A stretch of 64,000 nt of DNA from an uncultured Bacillota bacterium. Lineage in GTDB: Bacteria; Bacillota; Clostridia; Christensenellales; UBA1242. A model generated the notes under the pieces. It searched no databases. It saw nothing but the letters and a program-made list of their open reading frames with translations, and was not told the origin of the DNA. Numbering within the stretch: position 1 is the first letter of the stretch; every line of letters starts with the position of its first letter. The position numbers and the translations under genes were made by a program. Shown here one piece after another: positions 28,913 to 35,184 of this stretch. The stretch spans positions 8,756-72,755 of the forward strand of contig UQVQ01000002.1 in the NCBI GenBank assembly GCA_900544595.1, given 5' to 3'.

Positions 28913-29503
28913 CTAAATTTCTCGTCTTGCTTCAAGCGCTTTTGCAAGGGTTATTTCATCGGCAAATTCAAGTTCGCTTCCCATTGAAATTCCTTGCGCC
29001 AGGCGCGTTACTTTAACGCCAAGAGGTTTAAGAAGTTTTGCAATATACATTGCTGTTGCATCCCCTTCAACATCTGGGTTTGTTGCCATGATAACTTCTT
29101 GTGTTCCATATTTGTTAATTCTTTCAAGAAGTTCCTTAATTCGAATGTCGTTGGGCCCTCTTCCTTCAAGAGGACTTATTGTTCCATGCAAAACATGATA
29201 AACGCCATCGAACGCTCGCGATTTTTCCATTGCAACAACGTCTTTTGGCTCTTTAACAACGCAAATTGTTTTTGGATTTCTTGTTTTGCAAATTGGGCAA
29301 ATTTCTTCGTCGGTGAAATTTCCGCATTCCTTGCAATAGCCAACTTCTCGTTTTGCTTGCATGATTGCATCAGAAAAATGTTCCGCATATTCTAAATCGG
29401 AATTTATAACTTTATATGCATATCTTTGGGCTGTTTTTGCGCCAACTCCTGGAAGAGTTCGAAACGCAGCAACAAGCCTTTCAAGAGCCTCAATTTCGTT
29501 CAT
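28913..29503 (-). CDS. recR: recombination protein RecR
   Basis: LPGVGAKTAQR helix-hairpin-helix, a C4 zinc finger (CKECGN...CPIC) and a Toprim domain. Confidence 0.95.
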   Translation of the reverse strand: MNEIEALERLVAAFRTLPGVGAKTAQRYAYKVINSDLEYAEHFSDAIMQAKREVGYCKECGNFTDEEICPICKTRNPKTICVVKEPKDVVAMEKSRAFDGVYHVLHGTISPLEGRGPNDIRIKELLERINKYGTQEVIMATNPDVEGDATAMYIAKLLKPLGVKVTRLAQGISMGSELEFADEITLAKALEARREI

Positions 29504-29504
29504 C

Positions 29505-29846
29505 TTACATTAGCCCCGGAACAGAAGGTGTGTTTTCCTTTTCAACCTTTTCAATTTGACTTGTTGCATCGTTAATTGCAGCAATAATAAGGTCTTGAAG
29601 CATTTCAACATCGTCTGGGTCAACAATTTCTTGTTTGATTGAAAGCGATTTAAGTTTTTTATCGCCTGTCATAACAACTTCAACCATTCCGCCGCCAGAT
29701 TTTGCAACAAATTCGGTGCTGTTAAGTTCCTCTTTTGCCTTTTCCATATCTTCCTGCATCTTTTGTGCTTGCTTCATAAGCTGTTGCATATTAAATCCGC
29801 CGCCGAAGCCACCCATGCCTCCAAATCCACCTCTATATCCGCTCAT
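29505..29846 (-). CDS. ybaB: nucleoid-associated protein YbaB/EbfC
   Basis: 113 aa. A Gly-rich N-terminus, then MQQLMKQAQKMQEDMEKAKEEL and the YbaB fold pattern. It is adjacent to recR. Confidence 0.9.
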   Translation of the reverse strand: MSGYRGGFGGMGGFGGGFNMQQLMKQAQKMQEDMEKAKEELNSTEFVAKSGGGMVEVVMTGDKKLKSLSIKQEIVDPDDVEMLQDLIIAAINDATSQIEKVEKENTPSVPGLM

Positions 29847-29922: not shown

Positions 29923-31407
29923 TTATTCTTTGTCTTCCGTCTTTGTGGTGCTTTTGTTTTCCATTTCTAGCGCGCAAGACTTATTTTTGCTTTCGTTTTC
30001 TTTTAAAACTTGTTCGCCTTCCCCTCTCTTTTCGTCAATAATATTTTCTTTCATTCCTCTTAAAAAGTTTTCTTCTTCACGTTTATTTTCAATGTTTAAA
30101 GAAAGATTTTCCCCGCTTAATTTTTTGCCGCTTTCAATGCTATTTAACTCGTTTTGTGGTTGAATTAAATTTTCATTGCTCGAATTATTTTCAAGATTTA
30201 CCCTATTTTGTTTAGCGCAATCCAAAACCTTTCCCGCTGGAACAACTTGCGTTAAAACAAGAAGTTTAAGCCCGCCGCAAATTGCAAGCGCAATTCCAAT
30301 TGTTGGAACAGCCAAGCAAATTGCCGCAATTGGAATTGAAGTAAGTTTTCGATATGTGTCCTTCATTGCAAAAAGTCGCGCACTGTTCTTTTCATGGTTT
30401 CCATTAGCATAAAAAGCCGTGTCGAAAGGAACAAGATGGAATGGGGTTGCAAGCCCAAAAACTCCAGCCAAAATGCAAGCAAGCCAAACAACATTAACAA
30501 AGGAAATTGCAATTGTTACTCCCGCAGCAAGAACAATTGAAACAGAGCCAATAATTTTCCAATCAATCTTTTTAAGAAGCCATGCAATAAGCAAACTTCC
30601 AATTAGGTTTGTAACGGAAATTATAATTTTAATTACAGCTGCTGAAACAAAGGTTGAAAACGCAACATATGCGTTTAAAACAAAGAAAACATCAAGAATT
30701 GTAACAACTCCAACAAGCCCTTCGCAAACCCAAGGATAGTAGTTTTTGAAAGGATTGAATTTTTGTTTTGGCTTAGCGGTTTCATTTTGAGTTATTTCAA
30801 CTTCCATTTTTGCTTCTTCCGCTGGCTTTTGTTCTTTATAAAGGAAGAAGAAAACTGTTGTTAAAACAACATAAATAATAATTCCCGCAAGAGAAACCCA
30901 TTTTGAATCGAACCTATCTAAAATAAATGCGCTTGCAAGAAGAAAAACAACGCCACCAAGATAGTCGAATGCTTGAATGAAGCTTTGGGTTTTAGGATTT
31001 GAACTTTGTTTAAGTTTTCCAATTAAAACCCCAAGCGGACATGCCCCAAACGAGTTAACAAGCCCGTTTAGAACTGAAAACAAAATCATAAAAAGCAAAC
31101 TGTCCATTTCAAAAAAGAAAAGAGAAAACATTGCAAGATATGGAATTGAACGCAAAAGCAAAGAAATTTTTGGATATTTCGCAAAAAATTTGTTTAAAAG
31201 AACATTTGTTAAAATTTGAACAAATGAATATATCATCATGTAATACATCACATACGACAATTTTCCAGATGATTTATAAATAAAAACTGCGCCAAATGCC
31301 TTAATCATAGATTCGCAAATTGTGCTTGCGCAGCGATAGAACCCAACCCCAAGAAAATTTCTCTTTTCCGTTTTTTCGTTTGTCAACCTTGTTTTCCCTT
31401 TATTCAA
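29923..31407 (-). CDS. MFS-like polytopic membrane transporter with a low-complexity C-terminal tail
   Basis: About 12 hydrophobic helices in a 6+6 arrangement with a central charged loop. The listed start is TTG; an internal ATG at 31308 is possible. Confidence 0.65.
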   Translation of the reverse strand: MNKGKTRLTNEKTEKRNFLGVGFYRCASTICESMIKAFGAVFIYKSSGKLSYVMYYMMIYSFVQILTNVLLNKFFAKYPKISLLLRSIPYLAMFSLFFFEMDSLLFMILFSVLNGLVNSFGACPLGVLIGKLKQSSNPKTQSFIQAFDYLGGVVFLLASAFILDRFDSKWVSLAGIIIYVVLTTVFFFLYKEQKPAEEAKMEVEITQNETAKPKQKFNPFKNYYPWVCEGLVGVVTILDVFFVLNAYVAFSTFVSAAVIKIIISVTNLIGSLLIAWLLKKIDWKIIGSVSIVLAAGVTIAISFVNVVWLACILAGVFGLATPFHLVPFDTAFYANGNHEKNSARLFAMKDTYRKLTSIPIAAICLAVPTIGIALAICGGLKLLVLTQVVPAGKVLDCAKQNRVNLENNSSNENLIQPQNELNSIESGKKLSGENLSLNIENKREEENFLRGMKENIIDEKRGEGEQVLKENESKNKSCALEMENKSTTKTEDKE

Positions 31408-31756
31408 CAGTCAAATTATTTTTAAATTTCTCTTTCAAAAATTCAATGTCTTTCAAAACTTTTTCGTCTTTTGGTTCAACTTTTTTAATAACAATGCCCA
31501 AATCAATTCCCAAATATCTTAGCGCGCGTTTAATACTTAAAATGTTTTGATCGTTTGCAATAAGATTATATAAATATTCTTTTTCGGTTTTTGCAACAAG
31601 ATTTTCACCTTCAATTTCAATCTCTTCAATTTCCCCGCAGGAAACAAAAAGAGCTGCTTCCCCGCTTTCACGAAGACGCGTTAAAAGTTTTCCCCAAACT
31701 TGTTTTGGAGAGTAATTATCTTTTTTCACCTTAAAATTTAGTTTTTTTTTGAGCAA
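31400..31756 (-). CDS. dnaX: DnaX (tau) C-terminal segment, in the -1 frame relative to dnaX
   Basis: QVWGKLLTRLRESGEAALFVSCGEIEEIEIEGENLVAKTEKEYLYNLI resembles the C-terminal domain of Firmicutes DnaX. There is no credible independent start. It overlaps the dnaX stop at the A9 run. Confidence 0.7.
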   Translation of the reverse strand: MLKKKLNFKVKKDNYSPKQVWGKLLTRLRESGEAALFVSCGEIEEIEIEGENLVAKTEKEYLYNLIANDQNILSIKRALRYLGIDLGIVIKKVEPKDEKVLKDIEFLKEKFKNNLTVE

Positions 31757-32856
31757 TCTTCGCCCATAATTGCTTTAACGGTTGCAACTTCAACAAGCGT
31801 TCTTGGGCTAAGCGCATATTTTAAATCGGCTTCAATTTCCGAAAAGTTTTTCATAAGGAACATAAGCATTTCTTCCGAAACTTTTTCGGCTTGCTCCTCC
31901 ATTCTCTTAATTGTTTCGTTTGGAAGACTAAGAATTTCTGCTGCATTTTTTGAGGATTTAACAACAAGCAAGTTGCGGAAATGAACCGTTAAATCCTTTG
32001 CAAAAACAGAAATGTTAATTCCGCCTTTAATCGCTTCGTCGATAACTTCAAACGCTTTTCCGGTGTTCCCCTCAAAAATTGCGGTTGCAAAATCGAAAAG
32101 TTTGTCTTGATTTGTTGCCCCAAGCATTGAAAGCGCATTAGAATAACTTGCAACTCCGCCGCCAAGCGAAACAACAGCGTCGGCAATTGAAAGCATATCG
32201 CGAACGCTTCCTTGCGCGGCAGAAACAATAAGGTCAACGGCTTCGTCCTCAAAGTTAATTTTTTCTTTATTGAAAATTGAAATTAAGTGTTTTTTAAGTT
32301 CAACAGGTGAAATAAGTTTAAAATCAAATTTCAAGCAGCGTGAAAGAATTGTTTGTGGAAGTTTGTGTGGTTCGGTTGTTCCAAGAATGAAAACAACATG
32401 TGCAGGTGGCTCTTCCAAGGTTTTTAAAAGAGCGTTAAAGGCGCTGTCGGTTAACATATGAACTTCGTCGATAATGTATACTTTATATTTTCCGTTTGTT
32501 GGAAGAAATTTAACTTTTTCGCGAATTTCCCTAACTTCGTCAACTCTGTTGTTTGACGCAGCATCAATTTCGATAATATCCATATTATTTGTTTCAGCAA
32601 GCGCTTTGCAAACTTCGCATTCATAGCAAGGCGACCCATTAACCGGCGAAAGACAATTAACCGCGCGCGCAAAAATTCTTGCAACACTTGTTTTCCCCGT
32701 TCCCCTGCTTCCCGAAAAAAGATAGGCATGGGAAATTTCCCCTTTCATAACTTGGTTTGAAAGAGTTCTTGTTATGTGGTTTTGCCCAATAACTTCGTCA
32801 AATGTGTTTGGTCGATATTTTCTATATAGTGCCTGATACATATTTTTAGTATACAC
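31738..32856 (-). CDS. dnaX: DNA polymerase III subunit gamma/tau (domains I-III; zero-frame product 372 aa)
   Basis: YRKYRP, GSRGTGKTS, the zinc module CxxC...CxxC, IIDEVHMLT and LKTLEEPP. It terminates two codons after the A9 run. The start is GTG at 32856 or ATG at 32841. Confidence 0.95.
   Translation of the reverse strand: MYTKNMYQALYRKYRPNTFDEVIGQNHITRTLSNQVMKGEISHAYLFSGSRGTGKTSVARIFARAVNCLSPVNGSPCYECEVCKALAETNNMDIIEIDAASNNRVDEVREIREKVKFLPTNGKYKVYIIDEVHMLTDSAFNALLKTLEEPPAHVVFILGTTEPHKLPQTILSRCLKFDFKLISPVELKKHLISIFNKEKINFEDEAVDLIVSAAQGSVRDMLSIADAVVSLGGGVASYSNALSMLGATNQDKLFDFATAIFEGNTGKAFEVIDEAIKGGINISVFAKDLTVHFRNLLVVKSSKNAAEILSLPNETIKRMEEQAEKVSEEMLMFLMKNFSEIEADLKYALSPRTLVEVATVKAIMGEDCSKKN
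31742..31750 (-). other. A9 slippery run at the dnaX frame junction
   Basis: Minus strand: TGC TCA AAA AAA AAC TAA. The -1 frame reads CTC AAA AAA AAA CTA AAT and continues into the C-terminal segment. Confidence 0.8.
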
Positions 32857-32994: not shown

Positions 32995-35184
32995 ATGAAA
33001 GCACTTGGAAAAACACTTCTTGCGATACTCATTATTGCGCTTGTTGGCGGCGGAGTTTATCTTGGCGTTTTTAGGCGCGACCTTTTCAAAAAACCAACCT
33101 ACACAGTCACATATGTTTGCGAAGACAAAAGTTTCGAAGATAAGACCGTTGAGGTTAATTCGGGCGAAAAATTAAAACTCCCAACTCCTCAGCGCGAGGG
33201 CTACACTTTTGACGGCTGGTTTAACGGCGACAAGAAATGGACAAACGATATGCCAGTTAAAGAAAACTTAACATTAACTGCAAAATGGAAAATTAAAAAC
33301 ATTTTAATTTCTTTTCAAAGCGGCGAGAACTCTTTTTCCAACGCATTTTCTCTTGGCGAACCTCTTCCGGTTTTAACAAAAGAAGGCTATAATTTCGACG
33401 GCTGGTTCACGGCGCTTGAAGGCGGCGAAAAAATTGAAGTTGCATCCGCAGACCTTGCGAACACAACTCTTTATTCAAGATTTTCATTACAAACCTATTC
33501 AATAACCTACATTCTTGACGGCGGACAGGAAACAACAAATCCAACTTCATTCACGGCTGAAACCCCAACATTCACTCTTGCCCAACCAACAAAAGAAAAC
33601 AATGTTTTTGAGGGCTGGAGCGGAACTGGAATCGACGGAATTTCAAAAACCGTAACAATTATAAAAGGAACAAATCAAGATCTTGTTTTCACGGCAAATT
33701 GGATTCCAGAAGTAATTCAAATTTCATTTATCGTTGACGGAAAGAAAATCAATAAAACTGCAACTCTTCAATATGGCGAAACACTTGCAAGCATTTCGCT
33801 TAACGCGGAAAGTCTTGGACTTTCGGGCTATACTTTAAGCGATTTCTATTCCGACAGTTCCATGCAAACAAAACAAGATTTAACAACCCCACTAAAAAAA
33901 GACACAATTCTCTATCTTTATTCAACATATATAATCGACAATGGTTTCTATGACTATCTTTCAAAATTCAAAGCTGCATCGAATAAAATTGAAATTAAAA
34001 GCTTTAACGAACTTGTTTCTTGGATCGACTATGTTCTTTTCAACAACATAACATCAAGCAAGGCAATAACTGCTTCGTTAACATATAAAACTTTTTCAAC
34101 AACAAGCAAACTTTTAAGCGAAGTTTCGTCCGCAATAAGCCAATCAACTTTCTCATATAAAAACACTGCTTATTCATACTGGGAAGGAAACACGAAAAAT
34201 GTTAAAATCTATGTTAACAACGACATGACGAATGAAGCTCAAAAAGTTTATGACGAAGGCCGCACAGGTATTCTTTCTCAAAACCCCTATGCACTTTCAA
34301 ATTTCACAAAAACTCGTTCCGATTCATTCAACGATTTCAACATTTATAATGTAACTAAAACACTTGAGGTTTCAACTTCCAACCAGCTTGTTTACGCTCT
34401 TGAAAAGGGGCTTAGACCTGTTTGCGTTCCGGGCTCAAAAGCAGAAACGGTTTTTGAAAAAGCAAAAGAAATCTTGCGAGATATTTGCAACGATGATATG
34501 ACAAATGTTGAAAAAGCTCGAGCAATTTATGAATGGATTATCCTTAATAACTCCTACGATCATAAGGCAGCCGACGAAATCACGGGGAACAACTGGTTTG
34601 AATACGACTCTTGGTTTGCAGAAGGTGTTTTTATTAGCAAAAAGGCCGTTTGCGACGGAATTTGCAAAGCGTTCTTAATTATGGCAAAAATTGAAGGAAT
34701 TCCAACAATTCGCGTAACTGGAAACGCCCACGCTTGGAACAAAGTATATCTTAATGGGGCTTGGTTTGGAGTTGATGCAACCCATGGTGACCTTTCGATT
34801 AGCGGAAGTTATGAAGCCCTAACCTACACTAGTTTCCTCTTCACCGACGAATATAAACGAAACGCTGGGTTCACTTCAGAAGAATATCCAAACATTATTG
34901 CAAACACTGTTGCCGACGTTTATGGAAACATTAAATTTGATAATAATGGCAAACCGTTCGACCTTTTAATTGGAAGCATGGCCGAATTCGATAACCTTTT
35001 AAACTATATTAAAGCAAATGTTCGCTCTTCGGTCTACACATTTGAAATTGCGATTGACCCTTCTGGAAGCGTAACCGCCTCTCAGCTCTATTCCAGATTT
35101 AGGCTTTCAATAAGTTTTTCACTCTCTCAAATTGAAAAGACCGATTCCGCAGGAAACAAAGTTATTATGTTTATTAAAAACTAA
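32995..35184 (+). CDS. cell-surface protein with Listeria-Bacteroides (Flg_new) repeats and a C-terminal transglutaminase-like cysteine peptidase domain
   Basis: N-terminal anchor. Repeated GY(T/N)FDGWF motifs. C-terminal AVCDGICKAFLIMAKIEGIPT...GNAHAWNKVY...GVDATHGD supplies a Cys-His-Asp triad pattern. Confidence 0.8.
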   Translation: MKALGKTLLAILIIALVGGGVYLGVFRRDLFKKPTYTVTYVCEDKSFEDKTVEVNSGEKLKLPTPQREGYTFDGWFNGDKKWTNDMPVKENLTLTAKWKIKNILISFQSGENSFSNAFSLGEPLPVLTKEGYNFDGWFTALEGGEKIEVASADLANTTLYSRFSLQTYSITYILDGGQETTNPTSFTAETPTFTLAQPTKENNVFEGWSGTGIDGISKTVTIIKGTNQDLVFTANWIPEVIQISFIVDGKKINKTATLQYGETLASISLNAESLGLSGYTLSDFYSDSSMQTKQDLTTPLKKDTILYLYSTYIIDNGFYDYLSKFKAASNKIEIKSFNELVSWIDYVLFNNITSSKAITASLTYKTFSTTSKLLSEVSSAISQSTFSYKNTAYSYWEGNTKNVKIYVNNDMTNEAQKVYDEGRTGILSQNPYALSNFTKTRSDSFNDFNIYNVTKTLEVSTSNQLVYALEKGLRPVCVPGSKAETVFEKAKEILRDICNDDMTNVEKARAIYEWIILNNSYDHKAADEITGNNWFEYDSWFAEGVFISKKAVCDGICKAFLIMAKIEGIPTIRVTGNAHAWNKVYLNGAWFGVDATHGDLSISGSYEALTYTSFLFTDEYKRNAGFTSEEYPNIIANTVADVYGNIKFDNNGKPFDLLIGSMAEFDNLLNYIKANVRSSVYTFEIAIDPSGSVTASQLYSRFRLSISFSLSQIEKTDSAGNKVIMFIKN

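Follow-up and report, generated by a model that had tools for sequence, protein, structure and literature searches.

We analyzed a 64-kb stretch of DNA (35% G+C; contig UQVQ01000002.1 of assembly GCA_900544595.1), referred to here as the window, from an uncultured Bacillota bacterium of the Christensenellales, with a focus on its minus-strand gene dnaX, which encodes the gamma/tau subunit of DNA polymerase III. The comparative data indicate that dnaX in this organism is a genuine two-frame gene and that this organization is conserved in its clade: the open reading frame (ORF) for a gamma-like protein ends at a run of nine adenines (A9), and the C-terminal domain that completes tau continues in the -1 frame. 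As judged from related sequences, the run is very likely a conserved recoding site rather than an assembly artifact. Our preferred reading, to which we assign a probability of roughly 0.6, is that tau is made by programmed transcriptional slippage as in Thermus dnaX, from transcripts that carry ten A's (A10).

Layout of the dnaX junction

The minus strand at the junction reads, 5' to 3', ...GGC GAA GAT TGC TCA AAA AAA AAC TAA ATT TTA AGG TGA AAA AAG... The features of the locus are as follows.

31738..32841, minus strand: zero-frame dnaX ORF; gamma-like product of 367 amino acids (aa), DnaX domains I to III, end ...GEDCSKKN-TAA

31742..31750, minus strand: A9 slippery run (T9 on the plus strand); here, RNA polymerase is proposed to insert one base and/or the ribosome to shift by -1

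31741, minus strand: invariant closing C; ends the Asn codon AAC when read in the zero frame and begins the Leu codon CTA when read in the tau frame

31738..31740, minus strand: zero-frame stop TAA, one base past the run; terminates the gamma-like product

31731..31733, minus strand: +1-frame stop TAA, in the frame of A8 or A11 transcripts (...SKKTKF-stop)

31403..31750, minus strand: tau-specific extension in the -1 frame (KKKLNFKV...NNLTVE), 116 aa from the first Lys of the run; stop at 31400..31402

31415..31708, minus strand: predicted folded C-terminal domain with an invariant W-G-K...L.E...C-G motif, based on an AlphaFold2 model and hhalign

The zero-frame ORF comprises 372 aa from a GTG at 32856 and 367 aa from an ATG at 32841; the ATG is more probably the start, since all relatives begin there (MYQALYRKY). 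The A9 run is the sole homopolymer of at least nine in the whole window, which contains 88 A/T runs of length 7 and 16 of length 8. Addition of one A, equivalent to the -1 frame, gives ...DCSKKKLNFKVKKDNYSPKQVWGKLLTRLRESGEAALFVSCGEIEEIEIEGENLV..., and this frame stays open for 113 codons beyond the three Lys codons, up to the stop at 31400..31402; the predicted full-length tau has 480 aa from the ATG. Every frame other than that of tau closes within a few codons of the run. The predicted peptides that distinguish the two products are the tau junction, ...DCSKKKLNFKVKK... (...DCSKKKLNFK...), and the gamma C terminus, ...DCSKKN.

A first-pass annotation, made from the letters of the window, had described dnaX as split at the A9 run with the end ...GEDCSKKN-TAA, and the minus-strand sequence at 31738..31750 bears this out. 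Its statement that the -1 frame continues past the run also holds, the frame being open to 31400. The segment had further been described as having no Shine-Dalgarno (SD) sequence or ATG of its own, which is essentially right: in this frame, a TTG lies two codons ahead of the run and a GTG seven codons past the run start, and neither has an SD core.

Conservation of the split across the clade

The clade sample consisted of 86 species-representative genomes, namely, 80 loci retrieved via the C-terminal domain, 2 from a first scan (L001 and L003), and 4 further species of the window's own subclade. The -1 split was found in 84 of them, in 82 cases with A9 and in 2 with A10, and the other 2 were in frame with A10. 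A number of features can be derived from these genomes. (i) Among the 82 genomes of the C-terminal-domain set and the first scan, 78 had exactly A9, a gamma frame open for ~365 to 408 codons upstream, and the C-terminal domain in the -1 frame. L001 and L129 had A10 and yet retained the -1 relation, the additional A being located on the 5' side, and L082 ("Candidatus Caccovivens faecavium") and L086 had A10 and a contiguous ORF. (ii) All four species of the window's subclade showed A9-C-TAA and the -1 arrangement. Two more independent assemblies of the window's own species also had A9, which brings the A9 assemblies of this species to three. (iii) Alignment of 83 junctions showed 100% conservation of the nine A's and of the C behind them, with the codons on either side varying freely. 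Lys was never encoded by AAG in the run, and the codon before it always ended in A. No run shorter than nine A's was present among the genomes examined. (iv) A zero-frame stop (TGA or TAA) was found 1 nucleotide (nt) past the run in most of the 82 genomes and within 10 nt in all split ones, and the +1 frame of the relatives closed after 0 to 13 codons.

The split is also visible at the protein level. A search with the fused sequence retrieved relatives from ENA, Logan, NCBI, and JGI; nearly all close relatives (99% to ~57% identity) were 365 to 390 aa long, corresponding to 75% query coverage, and a minority with 46 to 54% identity were ~480 aa or longer and covered the full query. All short proteins among P0001 to P0060 ended in ...KKN, sometimes followed by a few residues, at the column where the ~480-aa relatives all had ...KKKL.... 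The 27 clusters with at least 68% identity, comprising 312 member sequences, were all short. In some relatives (P0005 to P0010, P0023, P0025 to P0027, and P0033), the immediate zero-frame stop was lost, and the short product carried an out-of-frame tail of 2 to 20 aa, e.g., ...KKNWKFRNNFRQLNKFGESY. The exact C terminus of gamma is therefore not conserved, only its shortness.

In outgroup Firmicutes (a Christensenellaceae metagenome-assembled genome [MAG], Lachnospiraceae, Bacillus-group genera, and Lactobacillaceae), dnaX is contiguous and encodes 470 to 660 aa, and no A run was detected at this boundary in the outgroup genes retrieved by the N-terminal genome scan. The arrangement therefore arose in a single Clostridia lineage, made up of uncultured inhabitants of gut and rumen, the members of which are named Clostridia, Christensenella, Catabacter, or "Candidatus Caccovivens" in public records. 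A separate observation concerns L016:2495-3641 (MAG Clostridia bacterium RGIG1719), where the zero-frame dnaX stops at ~388 aa without an A run and a further 141 codons can be read in the +1 frame, which may reflect either another kind of frameshift or an assembly error.

Identity of the two parts and selection on the downstream frame

The upstream part matched NCBIfam TIGR02397 dnaX_nterm (E = 1.5e-134) and PRK05563 (E = 8.7e-156), as well as the Pfam families DNA_pol3_delta2, DNAX_ATPase_lid, and DNA_pol3_gamma3, the last of which ends at residue 368 (485-aa numbering), i.e., at the run. On the basis of these matches, the upstream part is unambiguously assigned to the DnaX domain I-III module. 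Since the C-terminal segment alone gave only insignificant matches to Pfam and NCBIfam (DUF5749, E = 0.02; PRK14952, E = 0.09), its homology was established with profiles. The segment aligned column by column with the contiguous 478- to 541-aa DnaX proteins of relatives, with the W-G-K...L.E...C-G motif being invariant. An hhalign comparison of the profile of 83 C-terminal segments with that of the last 125 residues of contiguous Firmicutes DnaX (Bacillus-group genera, Lactobacillaceae [Lactobacillus], Lachnospiraceae, and other Firmicutes) gave a match with a probability of 94.8% and E = 5.5e-8. The ratio of nonsynonymous to synonymous substitution rates (dN/dS) in the -1 frame had a median of 0.12 over 255 pairs; for the window and L081, dS was 0.216, dN was 0.029, and dN/dS was 0.135. 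These values indicate that the -1 frame is under strong purifying selection, and we take it to be translated. Taken together, the profile-profile comparison and the purifying selection identify the downstream peptide as the C-terminal domain of Firmicutes DnaX, in agreement with its description in the first-pass annotation.

In characterized systems, the C-terminal domain of tau tethers the polymerase. The AlphaFold2 model of the domain encoded here had a predicted local distance difference test (pLDDT) score of 85.8 and a predicted secondary structure in the order helix, helix, strand, strand, helix, helix, strand, helix, which resembles KH type II. The best Foldseek matches in the Protein Data Bank (PDB) were DnaA domain I (4TPS, 2E0G, and 2JMP), KH-type-II proteins, and DciA (8A3V), all with E values of at least 0.04; the match to 4TPS had a template modeling score of 0.67 to 0.70 normalized by target length, with a weak E value. 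Tau domain V (2AYA) was absent from the top 50 Foldseek matches of the model, and the sequence profile of the domain retrieved nothing relevant among PDB chains. The N-terminal domains of DnaA and DciA and domain V of tau share a common KH-II fold (Marsin et al. 2021, PMC8216460). The model is consistent with equivalence to domain V of tau, which binds the polymerase, but the fold is no proof of this.

Proposed transcriptional slippage and possible ribosomal frameshifting

According to the preferred reading, standard transcription and translation would produce the 367-aa gamma-like clamp-loader subunit, which ends one base past A9, and the 480-aa tau would arise only if the frame moves by -1 within the run. 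RNA polymerase would reiterate on the T9 template and thereby generate a mixed mRNA population, in which A9 and A12 transcripts would encode gamma, A10 transcripts would encode tau, and A8 and A11 transcripts would encode gamma-like variants that stop 3 to 4 codons further on. This would be the mechanism of Thermus thermophilus dnaX with the genomic frame set to gamma rather than tau. That slippage takes place, the level at which it does so (RNA polymerase or ribosome), and its efficiency are what we infer from the comparisons. Transcriptional slippage is favored because no stimulators of programmed ribosomal frameshifting (PRF) were found, because nine A's are a strict minimum, and because the stops are arranged as in Thermus. 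In many bacteria, selection against slippage becomes apparent once runs reach nine, which is also the length in Thermus dnaX (Baranov 2005, PMC1088944).

Several points weigh against this reading. (i) Two -1 heptamers, A_AAA_AAA and A_AAA_AAC, occur in phase within the run, and a stop codon is close behind. (ii) Simple slippage does not explain the invariant C, which follows the run in 83 of 83 junctions even though TTR would encode Leu just as well in these AT-rich genomes. This C could define the 3' edge of slippage or complete the A_AAA_AAC heptamer. (iii) Some AT-rich genomes show no selection against 9-mers (Baranov 2005, PMC1088944), and the G+C content here is low. (iv) Every member of the clade is an uncultured MAG.

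The first two of these points bear on programmed -1 ribosomal frameshifting, which we consider possible though rather unlikely. In that case, the mRNA would be uniformly A9, ribosomes would slip on A_AAA_AAA or A_AAA_AAC with the aid of the stop codon, and those that slip would make tau. Both heptamers are in phase with the zero-frame codons NNA AAA AAA AAC, the C that completes the second one is invariant despite the synonymous alternatives in the tau frame, the zero-frame stop lies within one codon in most species, and poly-A sites can serve both mechanisms (Antonov 2013, PMC3711429). However, the expected stimulators were not detected. An SD-like 4-mer upstream was present at only 13 of the 83 junctions; the mean folding z-score of the downstream 60 nt was -0.53, and the z-scores revealed no structure upstream or downstream of these junctions; RNAalifold identified 0 conserved pairs in 38 diverse junctions; and an Rfam scan of 31300..32100, with E values up to 10 allowed, yielded nothing but chance matches, the DnaX frameshift element not being among them. 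Moreover, 6 or 7 A's would be enough for either heptamer, yet the nine A's never vary and none of the genomes has a shorter run, and in Escherichia coli A_AAA_AAA and A_AAA_AAC are far less shift-prone than A_AAA_AAG (PMC5009743). The transcriptional and ribosomal routes may both contribute.

If transcriptional slippage is the route, a regulatory role of the run, in place of a fixed product ratio, is conceivable. Tau would depend entirely on slipped transcripts, and C invariably ends the run; pausing of RNA polymerase at this end might therefore set the tau:gamma ratio and with it the number of polymerase-coupling arms per clamp loader. We regard this as a distinctly speculative and improbable extension. 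If it applied, the ratio could depend on, for example, CTP or ATP pools or growth rate, and this Clostridia clade would have acquired, on its own, a way of adjusting replisome composition to nucleotide levels, in a phylum otherwise regarded as making only tau.

Translation of the downstream frame

A different explanation is true gene fission, in which the C-terminal domain would be translated separately, by reinitiation or coupling after the gamma stop, and act in trans. Gene callers do report the C-terminal segment as a stand-alone "hypothetical protein" of 100 to 125 aa, as was the case for all of the best 120 of 605 C-terminal-domain profile matches, and the window offers the in-frame TTG and GTG described above. 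In most species, however, the tau frame opens just 1 to 3 codons upstream of the run; in 26 of 81 split loci, there is no ATG, GTG, or TTG between this opening and the invariant WGK motif, and a start codon preceded by an SD core of at least 4 nt was found in only 3 of the 81. A scan for promoters and terminators found no such site between the gamma stop and the C-terminal domain. In addition, the tau frame is conserved in the residues right behind the run (KKKLKIE...), and there would be no reason for a perfectly conserved A9 in which AAA is never replaced by AAG. We therefore reject gene fission, which is very unlikely in view of the scarcity of starts and SD cores, the conserved postrun residues, and the invariant run; a frame change within the run appears to be the only conserved way to make tau.

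An exhaustive hidden Markov model search of 1.84 billion representatives returned 192 C-terminal-domain clusters (50% identity), nearly all of which are small ORFs. Some of the matches (P0348, P0369, P0378, P0388, P0394, P0452, and others) are stand-alone ORFs of 130 to 236 aa with the domain at the C-terminal end behind a longer linker, and in L129 (1620-2039), the WGK motif lies 43 codons past the run. Other lineages that have retained a linker resembling domain IV probably share the split arrangement, as far as can be judged from these sequences.

Rare in-frame alleles

In-frame A10 alleles were found in L082, L086, and L161; the last of these, on a 63-kb Logan contig, encodes P0030, which has 7 member sequences. 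Its nearest truncated relative, P0241, is 94% identical to the fused P0030. Among the best 120 relatives of P0030, 9 clusters (32 members) were fused and 111 were truncated, in a ranking that favors longer proteins. Contiguous A10 alleles are thus real but rare, and they are to be expected if either allele yields both products.

The coexistence of A9 and A10 alleles in related lineages, such as those of P0241 and P0030, and the hypermutability of long homopolymers would also fit phase variation at the DNA level, in which slipped-strand mispairing toggles the population between A9 (tau OFF) and A10 (tau ON). The two states are nevertheless very unequal, with 9 fused versus 111 truncated clusters despite the bias of the ranking toward fused proteins, and the close relatives of the window lack any fused protein, its three same-species assemblies all having A9. 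Tau is essential in studied bacteria, and an OFF state without rescue at the RNA level would therefore be lethal; contingency loci are, moreover, typically surface or restriction genes. Phase variation was rejected as highly improbable, given that the close relatives compared showed no switching of run length (the 27 closest clusters are all truncated) and that fused alleles are a small minority.

The first-pass annotation had contrasted a programmed slip with a homopolymer length error and had proposed a check of dnaX in related genomes; this check showed a conserved run and an ORF split in 84 of 86 species, and together with the 312 sequences and the same-species assemblies, it decides for the programmed slip. 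That the real gene has A10 and a contiguous tau ORF is scarcely credible and was rejected: homopolymers are error-prone in some sequencing chemistries and a few relatives (L082, L086, and L161) were assembled with an in-frame A10, but the same split recurs across many studies and assemblers (SPAdes, MEGAHIT, IDBA, and Logan), A9 is present in all three assemblies of the window's species, truncation extends to every one of the 312 members of the 27 closest protein clusters, A10 is reported by assemblers when it is present, as in the out-of-frame L001 and L129, and an artifact cannot give such a pattern with nine A's and C invariant.

Comparison with known systems

Two-ORF dnaX genes in which tau requires recoding were described by Antonov et al. 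(2013, NAR 41:6514, PMC3711429), whose list of 17 genes, 12 with poly-A tracts, covers 12 genera. The genes named are from Chlorobi, Bacteroidetes (Flavobacterium, Cytophaga, and Capnocytophaga), and Verrucomicrobia (Coraliomargarita); most of their tracts consist of A10 with a G behind it, and RefSeq had none of them annotated (PMC3711429). This type is also mentioned in the review by Atkins et al. (2016, PMC5009743). No Firmicute is among the poly-A genes named by Antonov et al., though the survey held 199 Firmicutes genomes (PMC3711429), and full-text literature searches on dnaX frameshifting or realignment, directed at Clostridia or Firmicutes, retrieved nothing further. The "inverted logic" noted in the first-pass annotation, in which standard decoding gives the short form, is confirmed as far as the layout is concerned, since the genomic frame is that of the short form, but it is not new in kind (Antonov 2013, PMC3711429).

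The dnaX gene analyzed here shares with the Antonov-type genes a gamma-like part in the zero frame, a tau part in the -1 frame, a poly-A tract at the junction, a close zero-frame stop, the need for a nonstandard event to make the longer product, and the absence of the recoding from public records. As in genes of this type, the frameshift position, the -1 direction, and the poly-A motif proved to be conserved among orthologues (84 of 86 genomes). In contrast to the Antonov-type genes, it belongs to uncultured gut Clostridia, has A9 and an invariant C, usually has a stop 1 nt past the run, and encodes a tau with almost no domain-IV linker. Since dnaX of neighboring Firmicutes is contiguous and lacks the run, its origin is probably independent of theirs.

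In T. thermophilus dnaX, transcripts with 9 or 9 + 3n A's yield tau and the others yield gamma, with stops close by in both other frames (PMC1088944, PMC5009743). Like the Thermus gene (Larsen et al. 2000, PNAS), the gene of the window has an A9 on the sense strand, close stops in both alternative frames, and two products with a common N-terminal part. The Thermus genome, however, encodes tau in a single ORF and slippage produces gamma, whereas here the genomic frame is that of the short product; slippage has been demonstrated experimentally in Thermus, whereas here it is deduced from sequence. The base after the run is G in Thermus and in Bacteroidetes/Chlorobi but C in this clade.

Common features with -1 PRF in E. 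coli dnaX are the gene itself, the slippery tract of lysine codons, the -1 direction, and the tau/gamma pair. The E. coli signal consists of A_AAA_AAG, an SD-like element, and a stem-loop, whereas none of the 83 junctions has the G and no conserved SD-like element or stem-loop was found; the roles of the frames are reversed, and E. coli gamma extends into domain IV whereas the product here stops where domain III does. In Shigella flexneri mxiE, transcriptional slippage on a homopolymer joins two overlapping ORFs and is likewise required for the longer, functional product; this is an unrelated gene for a transcription activator, and its run is read as U's (PMC1088944).

Implications

This is a new Firmicutes case, probably of independent origin, of the known two-ORF dnaX type, in a phylum where the type was undescribed, and the known range of the type, so far Chlorobi, Bacteroidetes, and Verrucomicrobia, is thereby extended. 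Among the Firmicutes studied so far, Bacillus subtilis and Streptococcus pyogenes are listed in a recent preprint as species that apparently lack gamma (bioRxiv 10.1101/2022.11.10.516041). The present clade would be a Firmicutes lineage with a gamma-like form by default, in an arrangement kept through deep divergence, and would add an independent case to the argument that two DnaX forms are selected. It would also be a naturally occurring case of an essential form that relies on nonstandard decoding, and its clean signature (A9, invariant C, immediate stop, and no RNA structure) would make a convenient cassette for studying slippage by nonmodel RNA polymerases. For annotation, public records hold a ~367-aa "DNA polymerase III subunit gamma/tau" and a 100- to 125-aa "hypothetical protein" where the data point to a single recoded gene; the clade includes at least 86 species-level genomes and 192 C-terminal-domain clusters, and pipelines should join both ORFs.

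Neighborhood of dnaX

The minus-strand gene at 29923..31407 encodes a 494-aa MFS-type membrane protein (Pfam MFS_1 in same-species contigs) whose C-terminal tail is long and rich in Glu, Asn, and Lys. The gene starts with a TTG at 31407, in overlap with the tau stop (31400..31402), and lies between dnaX and the usual ybaB (29505..29846) and recR (28913..29503). In L161, dnaX is directly followed by ybaB-recR, and the transporter gene therefore represents an insertion into a conserved operon. P0316 (626 aa) consists of a triose-phosphate isomerase (PF00121) fused to DnaX; in L161:739-2937, the triose-phosphate isomerase gene ends 12 nt before dnaX, and the fusion is therefore probably an artifact of gene calling or read-through. 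On the other side of dnaX, the divergent plus-strand gene at 32995..35184 encodes a 729-aa protein with an N-terminal membrane anchor. In same-species contigs, this protein has Flg_new repeats (PF09479) and a transglutaminase-core domain (PF01841), and it is probably a surface protein.

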